The notes beneath the pieces were generated by a model, which was not told the origin of the DNA, made no database searches, and worked only from the letters and a program-made list of their open reading frames with translations. The position numbers were made by a program, and so were the translations under genes. This document shows, in pieces, positions 1,836 to 20,836 of a stretch of DNA of 64,000 nt; the stretch's first letter is position 1, and every line of letters starts with the position of its first letter. This stretch comes from Croceivirga sp. (GTDB taxonomy: Bacteria > Bacteroidota > Bacteroidia > Flavobacteriales > Flavobacteriaceae): the NCBI GenBank assembly GCA_028284935.1, contig JANQQQ010000016.1, forward strand, positions 86,730-150,729, written 5' to 3'.

Positions 1836-3266
1836 TTGTTAAGGTCAATTTCAAAAAAACAAGTTTTGGAGAGGATTAAGTTTGAAAATCCTTGGTGGGT
1901 TGATGGCCACATCGAAGATGATTTTAATATCATGGCCAGAAGACTCTATTTTGATTTATTTAAACCATTGGTATATGAAAAAGACATCAGAAGAGCAGTA
2001 GTTCTTATGGGTCCTAGGCGAGTAGGAAAAACGGTCATGTTGTATCATATGGTAGAAGATTTGATAATGAACGGAGCTAATCCAAAAAAAATCATTTTTG
2101 TCACAATTGAAAATCCAATCTATAACAACATTTCACTAGAGCAACTTTTTGAGTATGCTAAGGAGGCCTCTGGTATAAAGGACAAAAATGATTGGTATGT
2201 TATTTACGATGAAATCCAATATTGTCGAGATTGGGAAGTACATCTTAAGTCTTTGGTTGATAGTTATAGAAAAGACAAATTTATTGTTTCCGGTTCGGCA
2301 GCAGCGGCGCTTAAATTTGCTAGTAATGAAAGTGGAGCTGGGCGTTTCACTGATTTTCTTCTACCACCACTTACGTTTAATGAATATATTTCTTTGCTTG
2401 GTTTGGAGCTTATTATTACCACAACGGAATTAAAATGGAAGGAACACGTCACCCAATTTTATACATCATCACACTTAAATGAACTAAACAAACATTTTAT
2501 CGATTATATAAACTTTGGAGGATATCCTGAGGTGATTTTTTCCAAGAAAATCCAAGAGAACCCCGGACGGTACATCAGACAGGATATAATTGATAAGGTT
2601 TTGTTGAGAGACTTGCCGAGCTTATACGGAATAAGCGATACAAGGGAGTTGAACTCTTTGTTCACAACCATTGCATATAATAGTGGAGGAGAATTTTCTT
2701 TAGAGACATTGAGCAAAGAATCTCAAGTTCCAAAAAACACCATAAAGAAATACATTGAATATTTAGAAGCTGCTTATTTGATAAAGAGGGTAAAACGAAT
2801 TGGTCAAAGTGGAAAACGTTTTAAAAGAGATAATTTTTTCAAAATTTATTTGACTAATCCGTCATTGAGAAGTGCATTGTTTTCCCCAATAGCAGCCACT
2901 GACGAAATGATTGGAAATATGGTTGAAACGGCGATTTTTTCTCAATGGCTGCATAGGGATTGGTTTACACCGTGGTATGCAAGATGGTCCAACGGTGAAG
3001 TAGATATGGTAGCTCTTAGTGAAACCAACCTAAAGCCTATTTGGGCCTTAGAAGTAAAATGGAGTAATCGATATTATGATAAGCCCAATGAACTAAAAAG
3101 TCTTCACAAGTTTTGTTCCGAGAATGATTTAAATCATCCAATTGTCACGACTATTGATGTCGAAGGCGAGAAGTATTATAAAGAACTAAACGTACAATTT
3201 CTACCTTCCGCTTCTTATGCATATACTATTGGGGCCAATACATTGGAACAGAAAAAAAATCGATAA
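1836..3266 (+). CDS. AAA+ ATPase (COG1373-type, AAA_14 + DUF4143-like C-terminus)
   Basis: Walker A GPRRVGKT, Walker B YVIYDEIQ, SGS and GGYPE motifs, C-terminal EVD...ALEVKW (PD-(D/E)xK-like). Confidence 0.85.
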   Translation: MLRSISKKQVLERIKFENPWWVDGHIEDDFNIMARRLYFDLFKPLVYEKDIRRAVVLMGPRRVGKTVMLYHMVEDLIMNGANPKKIIFVTIENPIYNNISLEQLFEYAKEASGIKDKNDWYVIYDEIQYCRDWEVHLKSLVDSYRKDKFIVSGSAAAALKFASNESGAGRFTDFLLPPLTFNEYISLLGLELIITTTELKWKEHVTQFYTSSHLNELNKHFIDYINFGGYPEVIFSKKIQENPGRYIRQDIIDKVLLRDLPSLYGISDTRELNSLFTTIAYNSGGEFSLETLSKESQVPKNTIKKYIEYLEAAYLIKRVKRIGQSGKRFKRDNFFKIYLTNPSLRSALFSPIAATDEMIGNMVETAIFSQWLHRDWFTPWYARWSNGEVDMVALSETNLKPIWALEVKWSNRYYDKPNELKSLHKFCSENDLNHPIVTTIDVEGEKYYKELNVQFLPSASYAYTIGANTLEQKKNR

Positions 3267-3311
3267 AATACTTGACCATTTTGGTGCCCTGTTGTTATTT
3301 CACACAATAGC

Positions 3312-4280
3312 TTAACAACATCCCCCACCATCATAATGAAAGGTAGATTCACTGATAAAAATATCGTCTCGCCCCAAGGAAGCTAATGCTCCTGCCGTTT
3401 TATCACAAACCGCCAAAGGTTGGTTTTTCAACAAAACATGCCCCTTGTGGTCATCAAAATAGTCTTCATCTCCAAAATAAATGGCCGCTTTTCCTGTGAA
3501 TATACAAGGGCCATCTTCTGGAATAGGGTCTTTGATGGCGGCAACCTCAATGGATTCAATATAAATTAATTCTTCCGTTGGGTAGTTTTTGGGATCCAAA
3601 ATGCGATAGGGTTTCCTGGCACGAATTTCAATGGTACCAAAGCCAACATCGGTCAATGCTTTGACGTACTGCTTTATGGGCAAACTTCCACTTAAACAGA
3701 GTGCCCTAAGCCTATCATCGTTTCTTAGGGTTTCATTCATGGGTTGTTCACAGGTGGGATCGCTCATCACCAATCGGCCATGGGGCTTGAGTACGCGGTA
3801 CATTTCTTCAATAGCGCGTTTAAGGTCCTCTTCCTTAAAGATATTGAACAGGCAATTTTGAGCCGCTACATCAATGCTATTATCTTCAACGGGCAAGTTG
3901 AGAGCATCGCCTTTTCGAAGCGCTACAAATTCTGATTGGAACCAATCGTTTTCCGCTTCCGCAATTTTGAAATTGTTGCGACTGGCTTCCAGCATTTCAT
4001 CCACAACATCCACTCCGACCACACCGCCTTTTTGGCGACTAAAATAAGAGAATTGAAGTAATTCCATTCCGCCACCAACACCCACGTATAAAATCTTGGG
4101 GTTGTTGGTCAAATCCCGGGCATGGACGGTACTCCCGCAGCCGTAGTTCATTTCTTGCATGATTTTAGGGATGGAAAGGCCCGGTAGTTCCCAAATGGGA
4201 TTGGTGGTGCAACATAACCCTACATCTGGTGTCAATGCTGCTTCTCTATATAAATCGCTGGTTGCTTCTAAATAGCTCAT
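3312..4280 (-). CDS. arsM: Arsenosugar-biosynthesis-associated arsenite methyltransferase
   Basis: GLCC, NYGCG, SAM-binding LYVGVGGG and ALCLSG motifs, C-terminal GGGCC. Directly downstream of arsS. Start taken at ATG 4280 (MSYLE). Confidence 0.85.
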   Translation of the reverse strand: MSYLEATSDLYREAALTPDVGLCCTTNPIWELPGLSIPKIMQEMNYGCGSTVHARDLTNNPKILYVGVGGGMELLQFSYFSRQKGGVVGVDVVDEMLEASRNNFKIAEAENDWFQSEFVALRKGDALNLPVEDNSIDVAAQNCLFNIFKEEDLKRAIEEMYRVLKPHGRLVMSDPTCEQPMNETLRNDDRLRALCLSGSLPIKQYVKALTDVGFGTIEIRARKPYRILDPKNYPTEELIYIESIEVAAIKDPIPEDGPCIFTGKAAIYFGDEDYFDDHKGHVLLKNQPLAVCDKTAGALASLGRDDIFISESTFHYDGGGCC

Positions 4281-4303
4281 ACTGTTATTTTGAATAGTTA
4301 AAA

Positions 4304-5392
4304 TTAGGTTACGGTTCCTTGACAGCTGCTTCCAGCCCCGGCCGTACATCCATAGCAATGTTGGGATATGATAATATTTCGGTCAGTAAGGATATCCTCA
4401 TTATAATCTTTGATGTGTTTTACCTTGCTAGCTAGCTTTAGGTCCAGCATTTGATTAAAATCACAATCATATAGCCACCCGTCCCAACTCACCGAAATGG
4501 TATTGGTACACATGACATTGGCCACAGCCGATGGGTTGTAGGCCTCTACCAAGGCATACATATAGTCCTCATAGTTCTCCGAAGCAATGAGGTAGTCCAA
4601 AAAGCGTGAAATGGGTAAATTGGTAATGGCGAAAAGGTTGTGGAACTGAATACCAAAATCTTCATCCAATGCCTTCTTAAAATCCTTTTCCAAAGCTGCT
4701 TGGTCCCCGGGAAGGTATGCTCCAGATGGGTTGTATACCAAATCCAATCGCAAATTGCTCCCTGGCATTCCGTACCCACGGGCATTCAATTCCTGTAGCG
4801 CTTTGATGGATTTATCAAAAACACCGTCACCACGTTGTTTGTCCGTTTTTCCCCGGGTATAATGGGGCATGGACGAAACCACGTGTACATTGTGCTTTTT
4901 GAAGAAATCGGGCAGGTCATAATACTTCTTATTGGCCCTGATGATCGTAAGGTTGGAACGAACGATAAAATCCTGAATTCCTGCTTTGGCCGCCTCTTCA
5001 ACAAACCATCTGAAATTTGGGTTCATTTCTGGAGCGCCCCCGGTCAAATCAAGCGTGTGTGCACCAGTATTGCGAATCACTTCCAGACACTGCTCCATGG
5101 TCTCACGGGTCATGATTTCCTTTCGATCCGGACCGGCATCAACATGGCAATGCTCGCATACTTGGTTGCACATATAGCCTACATTGATTTGTAGAATTTC
5201 CAGCTTTTTTGGCTTTAATGGATAGTGACCGATTTCGGAAATTTTGTCTTTAAAGTAGGGAAGCTCCCCATCGGCAAATAATCCCCCATTAAGGATGTCC
5301 AATTGCCTGTTCACAGAGGCCAGTTCATTATCACGGGCCTTCAATGATTTTTTGGATGCTTTCTTTACTTCGTTTAGAATACTTTGCGACAT
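4304..5392 (-). CDS. arsS: Arsenosugar biosynthesis radical SAM protein (Cys-rich C-terminus)
   Basis: CNQVCEHC (CxxxCxxC), TGGAPE, YDCDFNQ and the C-terminal HCYGCTAGAGSSCQG. Confidence 0.9.
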   Translation of the reverse strand: MSQSILNEVKKASKKSLKARDNELASVNRQLDILNGGLFADGELPYFKDKISEIGHYPLKPKKLEILQINVGYMCNQVCEHCHVDAGPDRKEIMTRETMEQCLEVIRNTGAHTLDLTGGAPEMNPNFRWFVEEAAKAGIQDFIVRSNLTIIRANKKYYDLPDFFKKHNVHVVSSMPHYTRGKTDKQRGDGVFDKSIKALQELNARGYGMPGSNLRLDLVYNPSGAYLPGDQAALEKDFKKALDEDFGIQFHNLFAITNLPISRFLDYLIASENYEDYMYALVEAYNPSAVANVMCTNTISVSWDGWLYDCDFNQMLDLKLASKVKHIKDYNEDILTDRNIIISQHCYGCTAGAGSSCQGTVT

Positions 5393-5395
5393 GGG

Positions 5396-5731
5396 TTACA
5401 TGGATAATTTATTGTACTTGTTCATCATTTGCACGCCATGAACCAGGGTGGCTCCGCTTTCAATAGCGGCACCTGCATGGACGGCTTCCATCATTTCTTC
5501 CTTTGTAATACCCCGTTGCAGACCGTCCTTAGTGTAGGCATCAATGCAATAGGGGCATTTGACCACGTGGGCAACGGCCAATGCTATCAAGGATTTTTCA
5601 CGGGCGCTCAAGGCCCCTTCTTCAAATACCTTTCCGTAATAATCAAAGAATTTGGTGCCGAGTTCTTCGCTCCATTCCGTTATATTTCCAAACTTTCGTA
5701 GATCTGCTGGGTCATAATATGAGTTTGCCAT
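5396..5731 (-). CDS. Arsenosugar-associated AhpD/carboxymuconolactone decarboxylase-like peroxidase
   Basis: EKSLIALAVAHVVKCPYCIDAY (CxxC AhpD motif), adjacent to arsS. Confidence 0.85.
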   Translation of the reverse strand: MANSYYDPADLRKFGNITEWSEELGTKFFDYYGKVFEEGALSAREKSLIALAVAHVVKCPYCIDAYTKDGLQRGITKEEMMEAVHAGAAIESGATLVHGVQMMNKYNKLSM

Positions 5732-5791
5732 GTTTTATAAGCTTATGGTGAATAAAATTTTTGGGTGCACTCCAAAAACGAGGAGTAACAA

Positions 5792-5819
5792 TTTTTCTGA
5801 AAAAGAAGGTTCAGAAAAA
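5792..5819. other. Intergenic stem-loop inside the ars operon
   Basis: TTTTTCTGAA (5792-5801) / TTCAGAAAAA (5810-5819), perfect 10-bp inverted repeat. Confidence 0.6.
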
Positions 5820-5841
5820 AAAGGGTCCAAATGGACAACAA

Positions 5842-6531
5842 CTAAAATGAAAGGGAGGGAGAGCCTTTGTTAAAAGGATGGCTGATTTCAAATGACTTGG
5901 GAACATTATGGTGATAAAAGCTATTCCATTGCTTTCTTCTAATTATGGATAGCAATAAACGAAAAAGGGCAACAGAAATAAAATCTCGATGGGCAATGAC
6001 GGATTGAATATCTGCTATGGAATCAATATCGGTCAATCTTGGTAATTGGTGAAGCATTCCCCTGCGCATAAAGAAGCGTGCAGTTTCCTGAAATAGCTGT
6101 TGCTTTTGCCAAGGGAGTTGACGAAAACCAATGGGTTCAAAACGGTTCTTGTGAATCCCTAAGAGATAGATGCCGCCATCCGTGCTCGGCCCAATAACGG
6201 TTTTGCCATTAATCAGGTTTTCATAGGCCCGCTGGAGGGTGGCAACCGAAAGGTTGGGGGTATCATTCCCAACAGTAATTACGCTATCAAACCCTTTTGA
6301 GAAAATGGATTGTATGGCAGTCGTAAAACGCGCCCCAAAATCTGAGCCTATTTGGAGCTCTTCGGAATACACAAAATAGGGCAGTCCCGTTTTTTTGACC
6401 TTAGCGACAATTTCGTCATTTAAGGATTTAAAGAGTGGACCTGATTGCGGAATACTTTTGCGTGCAGCATCTACGCCATGGGAATTGGCAAATATTAGTA
6501 TGGCCGTGGTATTCAAATTAGGCAGCTGCAA
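5842..6531 (-). CDS. DUF2064 / CofC-like nucleotidyl- or glycosyltransferase associated with arsenosugar clusters
   Basis: QIGSDFGARF, VGNDTP, IGPSTDGGIYLLG and DID motifs. First gene of the arsS cluster. Confidence 0.8.
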   Translation of the reverse strand: MQLPNLNTTAILIFANSHGVDAARKSIPQSGPLFKSLNDEIVAKVKKTGLPYFVYSEELQIGSDFGARFTTAIQSIFSKGFDSVITVGNDTPNLSVATLQRAYENLINGKTVIGPSTDGGIYLLGIHKNRFEPIGFRQLPWQKQQLFQETARFFMRRGMLHQLPRLTDIDSIADIQSVIAHRDFISVALFRLLLSIIRRKQWNSFYHHNVPKSFEISHPFNKGSPSLSF

Positions 6532-6577
6532 GAAAATTAAGCTTTAGGTAAACTTACGATAAAATTCCTGAGTAGGT

Positions 6578-7426
6578 TTGGTCGAATATTTGACAAAACA
6601 TTACAAAAAGTTTATCGTAAAGACTATAATTTTGGATGATGACAATCTGACCAAGATGATTGAACAATCAAAAAGACTGGGATTGGTGCTTTCCGGTGGA
6701 GGTATTCGGGGCATGGCCCATATTGGATTGATCAAAGCCATGCAAGAGCGTAACATTGAAGCTGACTCGATTGCCGGATCCAGTATTGGTGCTTTGATAG
6801 GAGCCCTATATGCCAATGAAACCTCAACGGATGAAATGCTACAGTTTTTCAAGGAAACACCGTTGTTTAAATATAGTTTTTTTGCGTTCGGGAAGCCTGG
6901 ATTCATAGATACCGAAAGGTATGTTCCTATTCTTAAAAAGCACTTTTCAGAGAATTCCTTTTCTTCTCTAAAGAAGCCTTTATTTGTGGTAGCCACTGAT
7001 ATGCAGAACGGAACCGAACGGGTTTTTAAAGAGGGGGAACTCATTCGACCTTTATTGGCTTCGGCCGCTTTGTCCCCCGTATTCAGTCCTGTTGTAATCG
7101 ATAATGTTTTATATGCGGATGGGGGAATCATGAATAATTTTCCGAAGGAATATCTGGAGAAGGATGCTGATTTTATCATCGGGAGCAACGTCTCCATCGC
7201 CGGGAAGTTGGACAAGAAGGACTTGCGTAATTCCATACAACTGGCTGCACGAATTACAGGCTTGATGGTGTATGCTTCAAGCCATGAGAAGTTGCAACAA
7301 TGTGATTTGAAAATAGAACCCTTGGATCTTGAGGGAATCGGTGTCTTGGACAAAAAGGGCATAGAAAAGGCCTACACCATCGGATATGATGCCGCCAGCT
7401 TTGCCCTAGATGAAATTATGACCTAA
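6578..7426 (+). CDS. Patatin-like phospholipase
   Basis: LSGGGIRG, GSSIG (GxSxG) and DGG motifs. True start may be ATG 6656. Confidence 0.9.
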   Translation: MVEYLTKHYKKFIVKTIILDDDNLTKMIEQSKRLGLVLSGGGIRGMAHIGLIKAMQERNIEADSIAGSSIGALIGALYANETSTDEMLQFFKETPLFKYSFFAFGKPGFIDTERYVPILKKHFSENSFSSLKKPLFVVATDMQNGTERVFKEGELIRPLLASAALSPVFSPVVIDNVLYADGGIMNNFPKEYLEKDADFIIGSNVSIAGKLDKKDLRNSIQLAARITGLMVYASSHEKLQQCDLKIEPLDLEGIGVLDKKGIEKAYTIGYDAASFALDEIMT

Positions 7427-11891: not shown

Positions 11892-12959
11892 TTGAGTTGG
11901 CGCCAAATATTCACGTTTTTCTTTTTGGGTTTTTGCTTTGCAGAGGCTCAAAATGAGGTGACTCAGGTAGAAAAACAGTTGATTCAGGGTGTGTTGACCC
12001 AATTTCCGGACAACACCCATTTTGCCATTGCATTGGTCCAGGACGGGCAGACCTCTTTCTACGGATGTGTTAAAAAACCAAACGGCCTCGTTGAAGTGGA
12101 CAACAGGAAAAACTTATTTGAAGTAGGCTCTATATCAAAAGTTTTTACTGCCACCTTGCTGGCAAATGCCGTATTGGAAGGGAAAGTTGAATTGAACGCC
12201 TCCATAAATGACCATTTAGGCTTTGACATAAATAATGGATATGAGTTCACTTTTTTACAATTGGCCAACCATACTTCCGGATTACCCCGAATGCCTGGAA
12301 ATTTTATATTTCACACCAATGATGCCCAAAACCCCTATAAGGATTACGATGAAAATGCATTAATAGAGTTTTTGGAGAAGTATGTAACATTGCTCAATTA
12401 TGAAAAAAGGGAATATGAGTATTCAAACTTGGGCGCTGGCTTTTTGGGGTATCTCTTGACGAAAATAAATGACCAGTCCTATCATACATTATTGGAATCC
12501 AAAGTGTTTCAAAAACTTAGAATGGTTGATAGTTATGGTTATGTTCCAAGAAACCATGAAAATTTGGTTAAAGGACGTAACGAAAAAGGGGAAGTTACTT
12601 CAAATTGGGACTTGAACATACTGGCCGGTGCCGGAGCAGTGGTATCCAATGTTGAAGATATGTCAAAATTTATTCTGGCGCAGTTTGATATTTCGGACAA
12701 AGCATTGGTATTAACCAGGGAAGAAACCCATAAAATGGATGAGCATAGCGCAATCGCATTGGGTTGGCACATTAACAAAAAAGTAACTTCCGAACCTATT
12801 TTTTGGCATAATGGGGGAACGGGGGGCTATCGGTCTTGTATGGCCATCAACATAGATAATAAACGTGGTGTAATCGTCTTGTCCAACGTCTCTGCTTTTC
12901 ATAAAGAATCATCGAAAATTGATAATTTATCCTTTGATTTATTGAAAACGCTCAACTAA
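11892..12959 (+). CDS. Serine hydrolase, AmpC-like family, exported
   Basis: EVGSISK (SxxK), YSN and HNGGT motifs, N-terminal signal peptide. Confidence 0.88.
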   Translation: MSWRQIFTFFFLGFCFAEAQNEVTQVEKQLIQGVLTQFPDNTHFAIALVQDGQTSFYGCVKKPNGLVEVDNRKNLFEVGSISKVFTATLLANAVLEGKVELNASINDHLGFDINNGYEFTFLQLANHTSGLPRMPGNFIFHTNDAQNPYKDYDENALIEFLEKYVTLLNYEKREYEYSNLGAGFLGYLLTKINDQSYHTLLESKVFQKLRMVDSYGYVPRNHENLVKGRNEKGEVTSNWDLNILAGAGAVVSNVEDMSKFILAQFDISDKALVLTREETHKMDEHSAIALGWHINKKVTSEPIFWHNGGTGGYRSCMAINIDNKRGVIVLSNVSAFHKESSKIDNLSFDLLKTLN

Positions 12960-13013
12960 TTTAAATTAGGGCATACCTTATCCATTCATTCCTACAGTAA
13001 GGCCTTCTATTTT

Positions 13014-13066
13014 CAGTTATGCTACTTAGGAAAGATGTTGACTTTTGAAGCTTCGTTTTACATCCA
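13014..13066 (+). repeat. Left copy of direct repeat (degenerate duplicate of the sprE 5' end)
   Basis: 13028-13066 matches 17831-17869 at 37/39 nt. CAGTTAT also aligns, at a constant offset of 4803. Confidence 0.92.
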
Positions 13067-13152
13067 AAGTTTCAAATTAAGAAGCGATTGCAAAAGACGT
13101 TGTAACCTCAGCGGAAACGTTGAAGGAATTGGAAAGCTTCTTTTCTGGCCAA

Positions 13153-13407
13153 TTAAGGAAACACCTCATAGCAATCTTCATCGTTTCCTGTTGGGGGACA
13201 GTACGAGGCCTTGCAGGCACCACCCTCCCTTTCTTCCGCCAATTCAATACATCTTGATTCTGAAACAAAAGCATGATTGGTAAAACTAAAGGGTTGACCT
13301 GTACGGAAACCACCACAGCTAATACTACAACTACCTAATTCATCCTCGGAAGAACAGGCGTAAAAACATAATAGTATGGAAAAAAACAGAAGCCTAAGAA
13401 ATCGCAT
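13153..13407 (-). CDS. Small Cys-rich lipoprotein of unknown function
   Basis: Lipobox FYA-C18 followed by acidic SSEDE, with six further Cys in 84 aa. Confidence 0.75.
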   Translation of the reverse strand: MRFLRLLFFSILLCFYACSSEDELGSCSISCGGFRTGQPFSFTNHAFVSESRCIELAEEREGGACKASYCPPTGNDEDCYEVFP

Positions 13408-13423
13408 GATATTTGGTTATTGG

Positions 13424-14005
13424 TTATGGTTGTTTCATTATACATTGTGCAGGTTCCATCAAACTGGCTTGAAGCTTTTTGCTCAATATTTCGTAATCGA
13501 AAAAAGTGCCCAGATCATCCGTGCCAAATTTCTCTTCTCCTACCTTGTTCGAAGAGAAATAGACTTTGATATAGGAGATGGGATGTTGTGCAAATAATTT
13601 CAACTGTTCTTGATTTACCTTGTAGAAAGGTTTATTGATTTCCGTGGTCACGGGAAGCGTAAATTTTCCAAGCAAGGTCCTGTCCGGGTGCAAGGTTTCA
13701 ATAGTGCCATTTTCAAATTGTATAATCAACGGGTTGTCCTTCATGATGTCGATTCTTCTTCCCAACTCCCTAACAAGTACTAGGGACAGATAATAATTCT
13801 CGGCGGACCTGACAAAATTGGCCGAAGCTGCCTGACTGAACTTTGAGAACAAAGGTTTAGGTTTTGTGGCCTCAATAATCTTTTCTTCGGTAAAGTGTTT
13901 GTTCGCCCTGCGCATGCCCTTTGAAGAATTCTTGCACTTTTGTCCTATCCCAGAAGCAAAAACGAACAGTATAAATAGAAGGGTTATATGTTTTGTTGTG
14001 CTCAT
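13424..14005 (-). CDS. Exported hypothetical protein
   Basis: 193 aa, signal-peptide-like N-terminus, overlaps the upstream gene by 4 nt (ATGA-type coupling). Confidence 0.75.
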   Translation of the reverse strand: MSTTKHITLLFILFVFASGIGQKCKNSSKGMRRANKHFTEEKIIEATKPKPLFSKFSQAASANFVRSAENYYLSLVLVRELGRRIDIMKDNPLIIQFENGTIETLHPDRTLLGKFTLPVTTEINKPFYKVNQEQLKLFAQHPISYIKVYFSSNKVGEEKFGTDDLGTFFDYEILSKKLQASLMEPAQCIMKQP

Positions 14006-14523
14006 AACGTCATTGTAATTTTTAAGTTCACCGAATTTGTTTGAGGAAAAATGTCCAGATGGACCGGCATGTATATTCCTGCGGATTTATCCTTTAGGGC
14101 AATGGACTTCCATTTTGGGACCAATATCCCAATAAGTGCCCCAACCGCGGCACCGGAACCGGCCATGGCCAAATAAAACCCAGCCGTCTTTTCCCGGGGC
14201 TGCCCTAATGGATCGGTATCCAAATCGATGAGTAGTGCCGAAAGGGACAAGGTTGCAGTTCCAAATAGTGCACCCTCCACCAGATGATTTCCCTTTGGGA
14301 TTTTGATAAGTGAAATATGTTGTAGGGGAAGCTCAGCTTCCTTGTTGCTTTTTAAATGAATGTATTGGGCCATTATGGGGCCTATTTTTAGATCACTGAC
14401 CCTAATCATCCGGTGATCTTTCAAAAAGATTTTAGCGTTCCGGTAATGGCCATCCTGTTCTTTTTGCGCCAAAACATTAAGTGCGATCAAGAGAAAAATG
14501 AAAATCGTAATGGTATCCCTCAT
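14002..14523 (-). CDS. Exported hypothetical protein with glycine-zipper-like hydrophobic hairpin
   Basis: Signal peptide from ATG 14523 (MRDTITIFIFLLIALNVLAQ). Contains GALFG...GSGAAVGALIG. Confidence 0.72.
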   Translation of the reverse strand: MRDTITIFIFLLIALNVLAQKEQDGHYRNAKIFLKDHRMIRVSDLKIGPIMAQYIHLKSNKEAELPLQHISLIKIPKGNHLVEGALFGTATLSLSALLIDLDTDPLGQPREKTAGFYLAMAGSGAAVGALIGILVPKWKSIALKDKSAGIYMPVHLDIFPQTNSVNLKITMTL

Positions 14524-14641
14524 GAAATTCTGTATGATAACAGCCCCTTTTGAAAAAGAAAGGCCATATTGATGAGTAAGGCATTCTGCAAATGGCAATG
14601 GGAATGGATAAAGCTATAAAGTACCTTGTTGAAGGAACAGC

Positions 14642-14673
14642 ACTTATAGTTCAATTTCTTCTACTTATAGGTC
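14642..14673 (-). promoter_or_regulatory. Tandem direct repeat, putative AraC binding site
   Basis: ACTTATAGTTC (14642) and ACTTATAGGTC (14663), 21-bp period, upstream of a -7-like TAGCTTTA (14609-14616, minus strand). Confidence 0.6.
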
Positions 14674-14695
14674 GATGAAGTCTTTTTAAATCGGA

Positions 14696-17548
14696 CTAAG
14701 CCTTATACTGGGACGGAGGGACCCCGAAGGTCTCATTAAAACATTTGGAAAAGTAGCCCACGTTCTCAAACCCTACTCTAAAAGCAATTTCAGAAACCGT
14801 ACCTACATTAACCTTTAATAATTGTGCAGCTTTTTTTAATCGTATTAAGCGGATAAATCCCGATGGTGAATAGCCGGTATGGGCTTTTAGTTTTCGGTAT
14901 AACTGTGATTGGCTCATATTCATGCAAGATGCAAAAGAGCTGACGTCAAAACTGGAATCATCTAAATGCTCTTCAACAATTTGTAGGGCACGTTGAATGA
15001 TTCTTTGGTGTTCCGTGGTATATTTTAACCGTTTGATAGGTAGTGTATTGGGATTGTTCCAGGTTTTGGCCAAATTGGTGGTCAACACCTGTATTTTTGA
15101 TTCAAATTGTTCCCGCGCGTCTCGTATTTGAGCAAAATGGCGGTAGCACAATACGGTTAAGCCAAGAATTGCTAAGGCATAAACACCATAGGCCCATGAA
15201 GATTGCCAATAAGGAGGGGAAATAATGAATACTAGAGAAGCTTTTCCTAGTCCATCATTTGTCGTTTTTACATTTAAAGTATAGGTTCCCGAACTTAAAT
15301 TCCCCATAGTAATGTGTTGGTTTTTACCCAGCTGATGCCATTCTTTATTTGTCCCGATGAGTTGATATTCATAGTGGCTATTTGCCAAATCCGAATAGTT
15401 CAATTCCGCAAAAGAGAAGGTCATGTTGTTTTGGTCATGAAGAAGCCTCAGGGTATCCACTCTGGAAATGTGTTTTTTTGGGAAGTCTGGAGCGGGAATA
15501 CGATTACTTTTTTCATCAAGTAGTTGAAAGTCGGTAAACACGATTGGAGCGCTTTGTGTGAGCTGACCAAAAGCAAGTGGGTCAAAAGAATTGAAGCCAT
15601 TAATTCCTCCAAAAAAGAATTCCCCATTAGCACTTTCAAAATAGGCCCCTGCGTTGAATTCGCTGTCTTGAAGGCCATGGTGAACATCAAAATGCCTGAA
15701 TTTTTTTGTAGTCTGATCAAGTACGCTCATGCCTGCATTGCTTGTAAACCAAATTCGGTTTCTGCCATCGACCAATACGCCATAAATGACATCATTCAAA
15801 AGTCCACTGTTAGCGGTAAAGTGTTCGAACATCCCTGAGGTGACGTCCAATCGATTGAGTCCTCCCCCATAGGTGCCGACCCAGATATACCCTTTTTTGT
15901 CCTCGGCAATACTGGTGATGTATTTATGGCTCAAACCTTGCGGGCCTTCGGAATCGAATAAATATCTTTTTATTACACCTGTATCGGTATCCATGCAATT
16001 GAGCCCATCTTTGGTTCCAATCCATAGCAAACCCTTTTTATCAAAAAACAACTTATTAATGGAATTGGCGGAAAGGGATTTGTCTTTATCGGCAGCGAAT
16101 AAAAACCTTTCGGAAGCATTCGTTACAACATTGAATTTCCATAATCCATAACTGCCAATCCAAAGGTTGTTGTCCGCGTCGGCAGCCAAGGAGCGTACTT
16201 GGATTATGGAATCGGTTTGCCCTGGTAAAGTATAAAAACGTTCGAATTTGTTTCTTTTCACGTCATACCTTTTCAAGCCGTTTAGCCAAGTACCCGCCCA
16301 AATAGCTCCTGTTGAATCTTCACAAATAGACCGAATGGTATTTAAAGGGGTGGTCGAAATTTCTTCTGTGTCGTTCATTAATAAGGTCACCTTTTCTGTT
16401 GCCCTATCCATGAGGTTTAGTCCTCCATGAGTACCCACCCATAGTCTGTTTTTGCTATCCAACAGAATGCTGCGAACGGTGTTCTGACTTAACGTATTGG
16501 TATTGCCAAGAGAATGTTTATAATGGTTGAACCGAGGTTGACGTGGGTCATACTTGTTGACACCCCCAACATAGGTGCCTACCCACACTATTCCATCAGG
16601 GTCTTGGTACAAAGACCTTATGGAATTTGAGTTGAGGCCCGTAGTATTGTAAGGGTCATGGAGTATGCTTTTAAAAGAATGGTCAAAACGGTTAAAGAGA
16701 ACAAGTCCACTATTTCTTGTGCCTATGAATAGATGATTTTTCGTGCCAATGGCAAGAGACAACACCCCGGTATTGGAAAGAAGAGGACGGTTTTTATCAT
16801 AAAACTTGGAGGATTGCAATTTATTACTATTAAGGCTGTAGGTAAGAAGCCCTCTAGCGTTGCCGATCCAAAGGCACGATGAATCCAACACCATAGAAGC
16901 TGGATATGGGTTTTTAAGGGACTCGTGAAGAACACTTGTAAATGAATGGTTATGAATCTTTATTTTTTCTAAGCTCTCGGTACCCAAAACCCAAAAATGG
17001 TTTTTATCATCAGCTACTATAGACCATATCACATGGTTCCCTTTTGCTTTTTCAGAAAGGTATCTTTTAAAACCCTTGTCTTTGTCAAAAGTGTTGAGTC
17101 CGTCCATGGTACCCACCAATAAGGCCCCATCGCCATTGATGCATAGGGCATTCACTATATCGTTCGATATACTATGTGCCATACTTGGGGAATGTTGGTA
17201 TCTGGTAAATGTTTCGGTTTCTGGGTTGAAGTAATTGAGCCCATTGTTTGTTCCCACCCACAAAAAGCCATCTTCATGTTCCAATATGGTGTTGATATAG
17301 CTGCTGGAAAGACTATTGTTATTGTTTGGTTGATGTCTGTAAATGGTAAAGGTGGAACCATCATATTTATTGAGGCCGTCTTCTGTTCCAAACCACATAA
17401 AACCACGACTGTCCTTAATAATGCAGGTTACCGAAGACTGAGACAGTCCTTGGGCCATAGTGAGATGTTCAAATCTTGAGAACATATTTTGACCGTGAAC
17501 CAAAGAATGGATCACAAAGAAAAACAGGATGGTTGGGTGCACTCTCAT
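14696..17548 (-). CDS. Beta-propeller/Y_Y_Y sensor-TM-AraC regulator (HTCS-like, lacking kinase and receiver domains)
   Basis: Signal peptide, repeated D..G.LW.GT..GL units, Y_Y_Y-like segment (YEYQL...LSSGTYTLNVK), TM helix, then the AraC HTH (MSQSQLYRKLK...VSEIAFRVGF...YFSKCF). Confidence 0.9.
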   Translation of the reverse strand: MRVHPTILFFFVIHSLVHGQNMFSRFEHLTMAQGLSQSSVTCIIKDSRGFMWFGTEDGLNKYDGSTFTIYRHQPNNNNSLSSSYINTILEHEDGFLWVGTNNGLNYFNPETETFTRYQHSPSMAHSISNDIVNALCINGDGALLVGTMDGLNTFDKDKGFKRYLSEKAKGNHVIWSIVADDKNHFWVLGTESLEKIKIHNHSFTSVLHESLKNPYPASMVLDSSCLWIGNARGLLTYSLNSNKLQSSKFYDKNRPLLSNTGVLSLAIGTKNHLFIGTRNSGLVLFNRFDHSFKSILHDPYNTTGLNSNSIRSLYQDPDGIVWVGTYVGGVNKYDPRQPRFNHYKHSLGNTNTLSQNTVRSILLDSKNRLWVGTHGGLNLMDRATEKVTLLMNDTEEISTTPLNTIRSICEDSTGAIWAGTWLNGLKRYDVKRNKFERFYTLPGQTDSIIQVRSLAADADNNLWIGSYGLWKFNVVTNASERFLFAADKDKSLSANSINKLFFDKKGLLWIGTKDGLNCMDTDTGVIKRYLFDSEGPQGLSHKYITSIAEDKKGYIWVGTYGGGLNRLDVTSGMFEHFTANSGLLNDVIYGVLVDGRNRIWFTSNAGMSVLDQTTKKFRHFDVHHGLQDSEFNAGAYFESANGEFFFGGINGFNSFDPLAFGQLTQSAPIVFTDFQLLDEKSNRIPAPDFPKKHISRVDTLRLLHDQNNMTFSFAELNYSDLANSHYEYQLIGTNKEWHQLGKNQHITMGNLSSGTYTLNVKTTNDGLGKASLVFIISPPYWQSSWAYGVYALAILGLTVLCYRHFAQIRDAREQFESKIQVLTTNLAKTWNNPNTLPIKRLKYTTEHQRIIQRALQIVEEHLDDSSFDVSSFASCMNMSQSQLYRKLKAHTGYSPSGFIRLIRLKKAAQLLKVNVGTVSEIAFRVGFENVGYFSKCFNETFGVPPSQYKA

Positions 17549-17776: not shown

Positions 17777-17816
17777 CCATTTTAGTAAAAGCCATTATAA
17801 TATTTAGCCTTTTTTC

Positions 17817-17869
17817 CAGTTATCTTAACTAGGAAAGATTTTGATTTTTGAAGCTTCGTTTTACATCCA
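17817..17869 (+). repeat. Right copy of direct repeat (functional sprE 5' end)
   Basis: Contains the sprE TTG start at 17848. Matches 13014-13066. Confidence 0.92.
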
Positions 17870-20400
17870 TACTTCCAGTTTTTGGACTACTACTGTTGGC
17901 ATTGGGCTGTTCTACCAAAAAAGACGCCTTTATCAACCGCAATTGGCATGCCCTCAACACCAAGTTCAATGTACTTTATAATGGCAATATCGCCTTTGAG
18001 CAGGGACGGGAAGAGCTCAACGCATCCTACCGTGATGATTTTTGGGAAGTGCTTCCGGTGGAGCGTCTCGAAGTCACCGATGAAATCAAGCTGGATTCGG
18101 AAGACAACAACCCCAACTTTGAACGTGCTGAAGAAAAGGCGACCAAAGCCATTCAGAAGCACAGCATGAACATTAAGGACGAAGAGCGAAATCCGCAAAC
18201 TGATGAGGCTTTCCTCTTACTGGGCAAGGCGCGTTATTTTGACCAACGTTATATTCCGGCTTTGGAATCCTTCAATTATATCCTTAGAAATTATGTGGAG
18301 AGCAATAAGTTGAATGAAGCGACCATTTGGCGTGAAAAGACCAATATGCGATTGGACAATCCTGAGATTGCCATAAAAAACCTAAAGCGACTTTTAAAGT
18401 TTGAGGAATTAAGGGATCAGGAATATGCAGATTCCCATGCCGTAATGGCGCAGAGTTACCTAATGCTCAATGCTCCAGATACTGCCATACAACAACTAAA
18501 AGTAGCGCAGGCCTACACAAATAAAAACGAAGAGCGGGGGCGCTATCTCTTTATCATTGGTCAGTTATACAATCAACTAGGCTTTAAAGACAGTGCCAAC
18601 TATGCCTTTGATAAGGTCATTGCCTTAAACCGAAAGTCCCCAAGGGTGTATATGATCAATGCCCATATCAAAAAAATTCAGAATACCGAAGTCACCTCCG
18701 AAAACCAAGAATTCCTTTTGGAATACCTTACCGATTTGGAAGAAAACCGGGAGAATCGACCTTTTTTGGACAAGATTTATCATCAGATAGCGAATTACCA
18801 TCTGGAAACGAGATCGGATAGTACCGCCTTGGTCTATTATAACAAGTCGCTCCGTGCTACGCAACAGGACCGGAAGTTAAATGCCAGAAATTATGAGACC
18901 CTTGGAGAGTATTTTTTTAATCTCAAGGAATACAAAAGAGCTGGAGCCTATTACGATAGCACCTTGACCAATTTGGCGGAGAACACCAAGAAGTTCCGTC
19001 GCATCAAGAAGAAGTTTGACAATTTGGAAGACGTGATCAAATACGAGGATATTGTTCAATATGCAGATAGTGTAGTTACGGTTTACCAAATGCCCGAGGA
19101 CGAGCGCATTGCCTATTTTGAAGATTATATCCAGCAGTTAAAAGAAGAAGCTGCAGCGCTTGAAGCTCAAAAGGAGAAAAAAGCCAATGCAGGCTATGCT
19201 GCTTTTGCACAGAGTCAAGGAGGTAAAGAAAATAAGGGCAAGTTCTATTTCTATAATGTCACCAGTTTGGGTTATGGCAAAACTGATTTTAAAACCCGAT
19301 GGGGAGAACGTCCGCTTGAAGACGATTGGCGATGGAGCAACAAGACCAGGGTGGCACCATCCGAAGCAACCGGAGAATTGGTGGCAGCCAATGATAGCGT
19401 TGCAATTGTATCTGACGAAGAGCGGTATTCAGTAGCATACTATATGGACCAATTGCCCACAGACCCCAAAGTTGTTGATAGTCTGGCAGGGGAACGAAAT
19501 TTTGCCAATTATCAATTGGGCTTGATCTACAAAGAAAAATTCAAGGAAAACCTTTTGGCCGCAGGAAAATTGGAAGCGGTCCTTAAAGGAAATCCTGAAG
19601 AACGATTGATACTACCTTCAAAATATAACCTTTATAAAATCTATCAAGAAACCGGAAGTCCCTTGGCTGAAGGCATACGACAAGATATTTTGACCAATCA
19701 TGCCGATAGTCGTTATGCTACCATATTATTGAATCCCGATGCAGTTTTGGCCGATGATGAACAAGGGCCGGAAGCCCGATATAATGAGCTGTTCAAAAAA
19801 TACCGGCAGCAAGAATTTTTACGGGTCATCACCGAATCACAAGACTATATCAATCGTTTTACCGGCGACCCCATTGTGCCCAAATTTGAACTCCTTAAGG
19901 CAAATGCCATTGGAAGGTTACAAGGCTTTGAACCTTACAAGGAGGCTTTGAACTACGTGGCGCTGACCTACCCCAATAGTCCCGAAGGTAAAAAGGCGGA
20001 ACAGATTATTGCCGAGCAACTGCCCAAGTTGGAGTCCAAGGAATTTTCTCCAGAAGAGGGGAGTACGGGCACTGGAAATTGGAAGGTGGTTTTTCCTTTT
20101 AAAATCCGTGACGACGAGAACGCATTGAAACTGCTTAAACGGCTGGACGATGTGATAAAGGATTTACGGTACAAGAATATTGCATCCAAGGACATTTACA
20201 ACCTGGAAAACCAGTTTGTGGTGGTACATGGCTTCAAATCAAAAGACTTTGCACTAGGCTTTTCGGAGCTTATAAAAAAGAATAAGGACTATCGCATCCA
20301 GGATGAGAATTTTGTAGTTTTGTCCAAGAACTACCAGACCATCCTTGTACACAAAAATTTAGACGCTTACAAAGCACAATTGTTAACCCCAAAACCGTGA
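17848..20400 (+). CDS. sprE: Gliding motility / T9SS TPR lipoprotein SprE (PorW family)
   Basis: Lipobox LALG-C, STKKDAFINRNWHALNTKFNVLYNG, TPR-like helices and WGERPLEDDWR. Sits upstream of bactofilin and the atp operon. Confidence 0.8.
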   Translation: MKLRFTSILPVFGLLLLALGCSTKKDAFINRNWHALNTKFNVLYNGNIAFEQGREELNASYRDDFWEVLPVERLEVTDEIKLDSEDNNPNFERAEEKATKAIQKHSMNIKDEERNPQTDEAFLLLGKARYFDQRYIPALESFNYILRNYVESNKLNEATIWREKTNMRLDNPEIAIKNLKRLLKFEELRDQEYADSHAVMAQSYLMLNAPDTAIQQLKVAQAYTNKNEERGRYLFIIGQLYNQLGFKDSANYAFDKVIALNRKSPRVYMINAHIKKIQNTEVTSENQEFLLEYLTDLEENRENRPFLDKIYHQIANYHLETRSDSTALVYYNKSLRATQQDRKLNARNYETLGEYFFNLKEYKRAGAYYDSTLTNLAENTKKFRRIKKKFDNLEDVIKYEDIVQYADSVVTVYQMPEDERIAYFEDYIQQLKEEAAALEAQKEKKANAGYAAFAQSQGGKENKGKFYFYNVTSLGYGKTDFKTRWGERPLEDDWRWSNKTRVAPSEATGELVAANDSVAIVSDEERYSVAYYMDQLPTDPKVVDSLAGERNFANYQLGLIYKEKFKENLLAAGKLEAVLKGNPEERLILPSKYNLYKIYQETGSPLAEGIRQDILTNHADSRYATILLNPDAVLADDEQGPEARYNELFKKYRQQEFLRVITESQDYINRFTGDPIVPKFELLKANAIGRLQGFEPYKEALNYVALTYPNSPEGKKAEQIIAEQLPKLESKEFSPEEGSTGTGNWKVVFPFKIRDDENALKLLKRLDDVIKDLRYKNIASKDIYNLENQFVVVHGFKSKDFALGFSELIKKNKDYRIQDENFVVLSKNYQTILVHKNLDAYKAQLLTPKP

Positions 20401-20404
20401 ACAA

Positions 20405-20836
20405 ATGTTCTCAGACAAACAAAAACCCCGACCTATGGAAAACTTTGGCGGACAGCCCAACAGAATCGAAAAGAATACCGTAATCAAAGGTAACATCACT
20501 TCTGAAGCTGATTTTAGAATAGATGGAAAACTGGAAGGAAATGTAAAAACTTCTGGTAAAGTAGTTATTGGTAAAGATGGATTGATCAAAGGAAAAGTGG
20601 AATGTGTAAATGCCGATATTGAAGGCAACTTCAACGGAGAGCTTTATGTATCGGAATTACTGTCCCTAAAAAACTCTGCAAAGATTGAGGGCACGGTCAA
20701 CGTGACCAAATTGGCCGTTGAACCAGGAGCAACCTTTAATGCCTCATGCACTATGGGCAAAGGGACTGCCCCGGCAACGGGAAACACCCATAAACTACAG
20801 CCTTCAAAAGTGAATGAGCCGGCAAAAGTCTCCTAA
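20405..20836 (+). CDS. Bactofilin (polymer-forming cytoskeletal protein)
   Basis: IEKNTVIKGNI...FRIDGKLEGNV...IGKDGLIKG...LAVEPGATFNASC. Confidence 0.9.
   Translation: MFSDKQKPRPMENFGGQPNRIEKNTVIKGNITSEADFRIDGKLEGNVKTSGKVVIGKDGLIKGKVECVNADIEGNFNGELYVSELLSLKNSAKIEGTVNVTKLAVEPGATFNASCTMGKGTAPATGNTHKLQPSKVNEPAKVS

Follow-up and report, generated by a model that had tools for sequence, protein, structure and literature searches.

A kinase-less transmembrane regulator with a hybrid two-component system sensor and an AraC-type output in Croceivirga

Hybrid two-component systems (HTCSs) are the main glycan sensors of Bacteroidota, and their sensors are dimers. It is still debated how the periplasmic 'scissor' motion of an HTCS gives rise to a cytoplasmic output, in part because the kinase, receiver and DNA-binding steps all take place within a single chain. 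In the BT4663 sensor, as reportedly described by Lowe et al. in 2012, ligand closes the sensor like scissor blades and the membrane-proximal ends are brought together. Here we analyze a 64,000-nucleotide stretch of DNA from Croceivirga sp. (assembly GCA_028284935.1, contig JANQQQ010000016.1, positions 86,730 to 150,729 of the forward strand; hereafter the window), which carries a gene for a 950-amino acid (aa) protein (hereafter the regulator). In this protein an HTCS sensor is joined through a single transmembrane (TM) helix to an AraC-type DNA-binding domain, and the histidine kinase and receiver (REC) domains are missing. We favor, with a probability that we put at roughly 0.7, the reading that the regulator is a membrane-anchored one-component activator, derived from an HTCS minus its HisKA-HATPase-REC block and switched by ligand without phosphotransfer. 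It probably switches on three adjacent genes for small envelope proteins without phosphorylation.

The principle of a kinase-less sensor-regulator has been demonstrated before. BguR of Formosa agariphila is a 940-aa protein in which propellers and a Y_Y_Y domain are followed by a TM segment and a GerE output, without a phosphorelay (Bartosik et al., bioRxiv 10.64898/2026.01.10.698779). When BguR was deleted, cells could no longer grow on laminarin and its polysaccharide utilization locus (PUL) lost a roughly 80-fold induction, and the authors considered SusR alone to be comparable in architecture (bioRxiv 10.64898/2026.01.10.698779). Y_Y_Y domains are also tallied in a census of transmembrane regulators from 2023, which does not set kinase-less ones apart (PMC10269533). 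Our full-text literature search on the architecture found these two reports and no paper on a propeller/Y_Y_Y-TM-AraC protein.

Architecture and ancestry of the regulator

The domain content of the regulator was determined by profile searches. Pfam recognizes eight Reg_prop stretches (E 2e-54), a Y_Y_Y domain at residues 717-768 (E 1.5e-11) and HTH_18 at residues 873-949 (E 2.5e-21; 76.2 bits against a cut-off of 33.6). HTH_AraC scores 44.7 bits (cut-off 26.6), and the two helix-turn-helix (HTH) profiles together span residues 860-949. The output is thus a domain of about 100 residues with two HTH motifs above the Pfam gathering threshold, which places it among AraC/XylS-type regulators. No match to HisKA, HATPase_c or Response_reg was found in the regulator by Pfam at E <= 0.1. 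NCBIfam returned AraC-family matches only, besides a PorZ match of 138.6 bits that lies below its cut-off of 260. We rejected a PorZ identity, and likewise read the Pfam SGL and LRRK2 propeller matches as a common propeller fold and not as orthology.

Hydropathy analysis found one TM segment (residues 783-801) in addition to a signal-like N-terminus. No Lys or Arg lies just N-terminal of the TM segment and three lie just C-terminal of it, leaving residues 804-950 (147 aa) as the cytoplasmic tail. An AlphaFold2 model built from 46 sequences has a predicted local distance difference test score (pLDDT) of 84. It is all-beta at residues 27-776 and continues as one unbroken helix (784-828) made up of the TM segment and an extension of about 25 residues; after disorder at 826-843 (pLDDT <50) comes a seven-helix AraC domain at 845-941. 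With the cytoplasmic tail taken up in this way, the chain has no space for a receiver. Among orthologues the juxtamembrane motif YRxxxxxRxxFExKI is conserved, and the length of the tether that follows it varies by indels. Pfam, hydropathy and AlphaFold2 therefore agree with an earlier reading of this gene from its letters alone (the original prediction), which had described Reg_prop repeats, a Y_Y_Y domain, one TM helix and an AraC HTH in an intact frame, with about 145 cytoplasmic residues and no HisKA, HATPase or receiver.

When structures are superposed, the periplasmic part matches the sensors of BT4663 (4A2L; Foldseek E 4e-59, TM-score 0.79) and BT3049 (3V9F; TM-score 0.82), and it matches 4A2L by sequence as well (E 3e-101). 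The double propeller with its Y_Y_Y domain is a genuine HTCS sensor. The same relationship is seen at the other end of the protein. The best match of the AraC region in the PDB is an HTCS REC-AraC chain (12aw_A, E 6e-20), with stand-alone AraC-family proteins ranking below. The nearest non-orthologous AraC domains all come from full HTCSs (45-54% identity), in a search confined to proteins of 522-1662 aa, a length filter that excludes stand-alone AraC proteins.

We then asked how the regulator relates to full-length systems among 5.8 billion proteins. The 41 best matches after the query all have the short architecture (about 900-1000 aa), with identities falling from 72% to 41%, and no full HTCS (1370-1430 aa) comes closer than 37% identity. 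Named sources of the short homologues are all Flavobacteriaceae (Croceivirga, Ulvibacterium, Leptobacterium, Spongiimicrobium and Maribacter algarum), and the databases give these proteins generic labels. A tree built from the sensor region groups the 41 short proteins in a single clade (support 100), whose sister is a 1369-aa HTCS, P0047 (support 99). When the regulator and P0047 are aligned by BLASTP, residues 8-805 of the regulator match P0047 colinearly, and its residues 817-949 pair with P0047 residues 1234-1362. A clean gap is left at the roughly 428 residues of P0047 that hold HisKA, HATPase and REC, and the tether of the regulator is still recognizable as homologous to the REC-AraC linker of HTCSs. 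On these alignments and trees, the regulator appears to descend from an HTCS by in-frame loss of the HisKA-HATPase-REC block, and the kinase-less architecture is old and monophyletic. The clade, its sister and the gap also speak for the original prediction in its central point, a kinase-less HTCS derivative that signals without phosphotransfer. Elsewhere in the sensor tree output types are interleaved, which argues for frequent swapping of outputs on this sensor scaffold.

Selection was estimated as the ratio of nonsynonymous to synonymous substitution rates (dN/dS) by the Nei-Gojobori method on the unsaturated pair L002/L003. The whole protein gave 0.14, the propellers 0.14, the Y_Y_Y domain 0.07, the linker 0.15 and the TM helix 0.64; the AraC domain, at 0.06, was the lowest of all regions. 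Sensor and AraC domain are thus both under purifying selection.

A possible trace of the missing receiver is found within the AraC domain. The DNA-binding domains of HTCSs are held inactive by contact with REC (Gao, Wu and Stock, mBio 2024, PMC11253607), and this contact involves an Asp of helix alpha6 together with a Lys that follows 39 residues later, in alpha8 (PMC11253607). By alignment these residues map to positions 847 and 886 of the regulator. Position 847 is acidic in 62/67 HTCSs versus 17/45 short proteins, where Asn (n = 20) and His (n = 6) are also found; the window protein has His. Lys886, in the recognition helix, is retained in HTCSs and short proteins alike. The constraint imposed by the REC contact seems relaxed in the short proteins, judging from these columns, the expected outcome if the receiver is long gone.

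The candidate operator, the downstream genes and the cassette

Between the stop codon of the regulator and the first small gene, 12/12 loci share an ungapped 35-bp block with the consensus TGAcACATatcTGTAAGAAAtTGcAACATAtGTg. This candidate operator lies about 25 bp past the stop codon. A -7-like box resembling the Bacteroidota consensus TAnnTTTG lies 25 nt downstream of it and 85 nt upstream of the ATG, and the spacing of operator and box is fixed in 12/12 loci. The operator would then sit at roughly -40 to -71, a predicted position that fits an AraC-type activator site. When a position weight matrix (PWM) was built from the other 11 loci, leaving the window out, the window operator scored 26.1 bits and ranked first among the 8.46 million positions of the 4.23-Mb genome (mean -53.5, sd 12.8). 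A wider regulon was considered and rejected: the runner-up site (C31:38097, 18.3 bits) lies inside a coding region and all others score 12.4 bits or less. For HTCS operators, Ravcheev et al. (2013, PMC3878776) reported direct repeats with a spacing of about 21 bp, and the predicted operator likewise consists of direct repeats at this distance beside the presumably regulated genes. We conclude that the regulator is, on this sequence evidence, a dedicated local regulator, with its sole strong predicted site ahead of the downstream operon.

The neighbors of the regulator were compared by tblastn with 12 orthologous loci, 11 of which extend past the regulator. Only target genes 1 and 2 accompany it across genera; the remaining flanks differ. 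Target gene 2 is downstream of the regulator in 11/11 of these loci and target gene 1 in 10/11, missing only from a degraded Ulvibacterium locus (L007). Target gene 3 is kept after gene 2 in seven loci (L001-L003, L007, L008, L010 and L012), and some loci add a gene for a small outer-membrane beta-barrel. All three target-gene products bear signal peptides. Searches with Pfam, NCBIfam, PADLOC and PDB profiles assigned the target proteins to no family. The product of gene 2 is predicted by AlphaFold2 to be a beta-sandwich (pLDDT 81), for which Foldseek found weak beta-sandwich likeness only among PDB structures (best TM-score 0.37, E 4.5e-3).

The family of this 193-aa protein is tiny, with 53 representatives among 1.84 billion. 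Its distant members belong to a conserved trio, composed of a 175-210-aa protein, a 190-aa protein and an outer-membrane beta-barrel. At the distant locus L093 (positions 2126-4967 of a contig from JGI 3300002039) a sensor-AraC gene lies upstream of the small-protein genes. This homologue, from a more divergent lineage of the module, was called as two overlapping genes of 308 and 655 aa, reflecting a frameshift or an assembly error. Another distant locus, L094 (positions 5453-7315 of a Logan SRR7589087 contig), has the trio with no sensor-AraC gene within 6 kb. There the 178-aa protein, the 193-aa protein and the beta-barrel are encoded among glycoside hydrolase (GH) genes of family GH13 (alpha-amylase/cyclomaltodextrinase), a setting that is the sole hint of a carbohydrate context for the target family. 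No link of the target proteins to glycan breakdown was found.

Carbohydrate utilization genes are also missing around the regulator itself. We found no SusC/D, glycoside hydrolase or other carbohydrate-active enzyme (CAZyme) genes within about 15 kb on either side, so that the original prediction holds over this distance. The divergent neighbor encodes the type IX secretion system lipoprotein PorW/SprE (850 aa; NF052312, E 8e-255). This adjacency is seen only in the closest genera (Croceivirga and Ulvibacterium) and is absent at seven other orthologous loci, and no operator-like site lies there. As it is confined to the closest genera, we took it as synteny and rejected a functional link between the regulator and PorW/SprE. 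In the window (17848-20836) sprE is followed 4 nt on by a bactofilin gene (20405-20836), then by a DUF6168 gene and the ATP synthase operon; the sprE-bactofilin pair is kept in Croceivirga, Ulvibacterium and a congener.

Beyond the window's own genome, the regulator was searched for in one genome per genus from 300 Flavobacteriaceae genera. Five of the 300 have a full-length orthologue, and Ulvibacterium has a truncated copy. A congener without the module has DUF5687, ATP-binding cassette (ABC) ATPase and PorW genes contiguous, amounting to an empty site; in the window, the ABC gene is separated from PorW by a beta-lactamase-fold gene and the four-gene module. On either side of the module lies one copy of a 65-bp direct repeat, which corresponds to the sprE 5' region and first codons (13010-13074 and 17813-17877, 85% identity). 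The module behaves as an accessory cassette, and the pair of repeats may be the footprint of a cassette insertion or recombination. The two copies, 4803 bp apart start to start, enclose the segment from the lipoprotein gene to the regulator. The left one starts a spurious 82-aa open reading frame (ORF; 13035-13283), and no recombinase gene is present.

Two beta-lactamase-fold (PF00144) genes occur in the window, at 602-1705 and 11892-12959. The latter lies between the ABC ATPase gene and the cassette and is not there in Croceivirga, Ulvibacterium and the congener. In the Ulvibacterium sp. locus L007 (NZ_OZ245846.1, 8762-11608) the truncated orthologue matches residues 269-949 in a frame of 660-693 aa. 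Target gene 1 is gone, and what is left comprises the operator and the genes for the 193-aa protein and the lipoprotein. Decay of the module may be under way in this Ulvibacterium.

Table 1. Positions in the window of the regulator gene, its parts, the candidate operator and promoter, and the predicted target genes.
Feature	Position	Strand	Evidence or remark
Regulator gene, 950 aa	14696..17548	-	ATG start, intact ORF
Signal-peptide-like hydrophobic segment, residues 1-20	17489..17548	-	Hydropathy; low-pLDDT N-terminal helix; kept in orthologues
Periplasmic sensor, two Reg_prop beta-propellers, residues 24-700	15449..17479	-	Pfam, 4A2L, Foldseek, dN/dS 0.10-0.14
Y_Y_Y (Ig-like), membrane-proximal, residues 701-780	15209..15448	-	Pfam E 1.5e-11; dN/dS ~0.07
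Single TM helix, residues 783-803	15140..15202	-	Hydropathy maximum 783-801; positive-inside charges; AlphaFold2 helix 784-828
Juxtamembrane cytoplasmic helix, residues 804-828, YRxxxxxRxxFExKI	15065..15139	-	Orthologue alignment; AlphaFold2
Flexible tether, residues 829-844	15017..15064	-	Orthologue indels; pLDDT <50 at 826-843
AraC/XylS-type DNA-binding domain, two HTH motifs, residues 845-950	14699..15016	-	HTH_18; 12aw_A; dN/dS ~0.06
Candidate operator, two direct half-sites, 21-bp period	14639..14674	-	Ungapped block in 12 loci; PWM rank 1
Half-site GACCTATAAGT	14663-14673	-	Candidate operator
Half-site GAACTATAAGT	14642-14652	-	Candidate operator
-7-like promoter box TAGCTTTA	14609..14616	-	Invariant TA..TT columns, fixed spacing, alignment A1
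Target gene 1, 173 aa, ATG 14523	14002..14523	-	Signal peptide, small N-terminal domain, two Gly-rich hydrophobic segments
Target gene 2, 193 aa, exported beta-sandwich, two invariant Cys	13424..14005	-	Start overlaps gene 1 stop by 4 nt
Target gene 3, 84 aa, small Cys-rich lipoprotein	13153..13407	-	Lipobox ...FYAC, then SSEDE

Proposed signaling without phosphotransfer and competing explanations

By its architecture the regulator would belong to the membrane-spanning one-component class, with sensor and DNA-binding output in one chain and no phosphotransfer partner. We propose that it is constitutively dimeric, like the sensors of HTCSs. A ligand in the periplasm, probably an oligosaccharide, would close the sensor dimer as in the 'scissor' model of BT4663, and closure would draw the two TM and juxtamembrane helices together. 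The tethered AraC domains could then fill the two half-sites, which would lie on one DNA face at roughly -45 and -66, and RNA polymerase would thereby be brought to the promoter of the operon. Signaling would consume no ATP and involve no phosphotransfer. Control would be exerted through the proximity and avidity of two DNA-binding domains that act cooperatively on phased half-sites. Conformational change or dimerization, as put forward in the original prediction, may be the mode of signaling. A rigid helical or rotational coupling is disfavored because the tether is flexible and variable in length. Since the operator lies about 25 bp after the regulator stop, the membrane-inserted regulator would have its target close by.

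Several points weigh against this reading. The disordered, length-variable tether makes a faithful conformational coupling less obvious. A DNA-binding domain carried by a dimeric membrane protein, it has been argued, would tend to be constitutively active unless it is inhibited by REC (Gao et al. 2024, PMC11253607); REC is absent here, so that the keeping of an OFF state is the main difficulty for this reading. Finally, our searches gave neither a function nor a fold match for the target proteins and the locus has no glycan-utilization context, so the class of ligand is a guess.

The downstream envelope proteins, besides being the output, might themselves bind the propellers and set the activity or stability of the regulator as its co-components; such a ToxRS-like module would then monitor the state of the envelope and not a free nutrient ligand. 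Across genera the regulator is strictly inherited together with exported or membrane proteins, in a module without CAZyme or SusC/D context. In distant relatives the small proteins belong to an envelope trio that includes an outer-membrane beta-barrel, and cassettes of this kind have precedents in ToxR-ToxS and TcpP-TcpH. Yet a plain relation of regulator and target explains the co-inheritance equally well, and the intervening operator-promoter suggests that the small genes are regulated, not stoichiometrically co-expressed with the sensor. Moreover, one distant locus has the trio without such a regulator within 6 kb, and the sensor is structurally close to the glycan-binding sensors of HTCSs. 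We therefore regard a co-component as unlikely. The same low standing is given to its extension, in which a glycan-sensor scaffold of HTCS origin has been repurposed as a sensor of envelope state and the three co-inherited proteins, namely the membrane protein with a signal peptide, a disulfide-bonded beta-sandwich protein and the small lipoprotein, joined in relatives by an outer-membrane barrel, serve both as output and as propeller-docking input, in a self-contained ToxRS-like cassette that is unrelated to nutrient acquisition and moves as a unit from one genomic site to another. Slightly less probable still is a control by abundance or proteolysis, with AraC domains that bind constitutively and a signal that acts by regulated degradation, or by intramembrane cleavage that releases or destroys the DNA-binding domain. 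With REC lost, the DNA-binding domain has no known inhibitor, the disordered tether of about 17 residues would be accessible to proteases, and transmembrane regulators of the TcpP type are under proteolytic control. On the other hand, the strong purifying selection on the sensor of about 750 residues (dN/dS 0.10-0.14) argues for a function that depends on ligand, the module contains no conserved protease gene and BguR acts as a substrate-inducible activator.

That the regulator is instead a decaying or functionless remnant of an HTCS, be it a recent deletion allele or a nascent pseudogene, is effectively excluded. The Ulvibacterium orthologue (L007 / G279), cut to a frame of 660-693 aa with its first target gene lost, and the congener without the module could be read in this way. 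However, 41 intact homologues share the same architecture down to 41% identity and are monophyletic, dN/dS is near 0.1 and lowest in the AraC domain, and a conserved operator lies downstream. The original prediction had itself allowed for closest homologues that are full-length HTCSs and for a recent, strain-specific deletion. Neither is what we found, with full HTCSs appearing only after the 41 short proteins, at no more than 37% identity, and with the short proteins in one fully supported clade under an overall dN/dS of 0.14.

This conserved lineage is a natural minimal system, in which sensor, TM helix, REC-AraC linker and DNA-binding domain have been retained from an HTCS and the phosphorelay is dispensed with. 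With one sensor, one operator and one small operon it offers an unusually clean setting for the study of mechanical HTCS signaling. It would allow testing whether sensor-driven proximity of two AraC domains suffices for regulation, and how an OFF state is kept without REC. The compact pair of sensor and operator could also be a simple chassis for ligand-responsive expression in Flavobacteriia, and the predicted regulon points to an uncharacterized envelope module built on a small protein family.

Comparison with described systems

The activity of ToxR-type regulators is thought to depend on dimerization and proximity. Like ToxR, CadC and TcpP, the regulator connects a periplasmic sensor to a DNA-binding domain in one membrane-spanning chain without phosphorylation. 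In those proteins, however, an N-terminal cytoplasmic winged-helix domain (OmpR/PhoB-type) precedes a C-terminal periplasmic part, whereas here, in the opposite order, an exported N-terminal sensor is followed by a C-terminal AraC domain; the proteins are unrelated in sequence and fold. The suggestion that the regulator signals in the manner of ToxR/CadC thus stands as a functional likeness and fails for DNA-binding fold and membrane topology.

BguR is closer in design. Both proteins have tandem propellers with a Y_Y_Y domain, one TM helix, a helical linker and a C-terminal HTH, and both lack phosphotransfer domains. Both are about 940 aa long, come from marine Flavobacteriia and are encoded next to their target genes. 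In contrast to the GerE/LuxR output of BguR, that of the regulator is HTH_18/AraC. The sensor of BguR is distantly HTCS-like (overall root-mean-square deviation of about 13.8 A according to its authors), whereas the regulator matches BT4663 with the E value of 3e-101 given above. BguR is found at PULs for beta-glucans (laminarin or beta-1,2-glucan), and the regulator has no GH or SusC/D genes within about 15 kb.

The Croceivirga genome has a BguR-type gene of its own (C11:143556-146354, corresponding to L097:12556-15354, minus strand), encoding a 932-aa kinase-less propeller/Y_Y_Y protein with a GerE/LuxR output. It lies directly upstream of genes for GH16+CBM4_9, a GH2-like protein, a 1142-aa protein without Pfam match, GH17, GH30 and a major facilitator superfamily (MFS) sugar transporter; this GH16/GH17/GH30 cluster is of the laminarin type, like that of BguR. 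As the genome has this separate gene, the AraC-type and BguR-type proteins represent distinct lineages, and the AraC-type protein is a second, independent kinase-less design in the same cell. Altogether the genome encodes five Y_Y_Y proteins, with AraC, GerE, HisKA-HATPase, GAF-HisKA_3-HATPase and HisKA_3-HATPase outputs, the three kinase-bearing ones having no receiver or DNA-binding domain. No full-length HTCS was found among the Y_Y_Y proteins of this genome, and other Flavobacteriaceae genera have full HTCSs.

The BguR-type solution is therefore not unique: a kinase-less regulator has arisen independently with another DNA-binding fold and outside PULs. With the kinase-less principle published and the architecture recurring, the novelty is lower than the original prediction had assumed. 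What is new is an HTCS-derived, AraC-output, non-PUL member of an emerging group of membrane-spanning one-component regulators in Bacteroidota. The same order of sensor, TM helix, short linker and AraC domain is also seen in P0144 (879 aa), which occupies an independent branch of the sensor tree, although this branch is long and its placement uncertain. Unlike the family in the window, P0144 adjoins GH127, rhamnogalacturonan-lyase-like and GH115 genes in a PUL-like setting.

The likeness to HTCSs (BT4663, 4A2L/4A2M; BT3049, 3V9F; and P0047) extends through most of the chain, from the signal peptide, the propellers, the Y_Y_Y domain and the single TM helix to the AraC domain, which is of the HTCS subtype, at the C-terminus. 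The former linker between REC and AraC can still be made out, and the direct repeats of the predicted operator are spaced 21 bp apart, as in reported HTCS regulons. The differences are that the regulator is without the whole phosphorelay (HisKA, HATPase_c and REC, about 428 residues), that the acidic residue contacting REC is no longer conserved in the short proteins, and that the predicted target is a set of three small envelope-protein genes and not a PUL. Since tests for a kinase and a receiver found neither, the regulator is not an HTCS in the strict sense, but it is an HTCS derivative.

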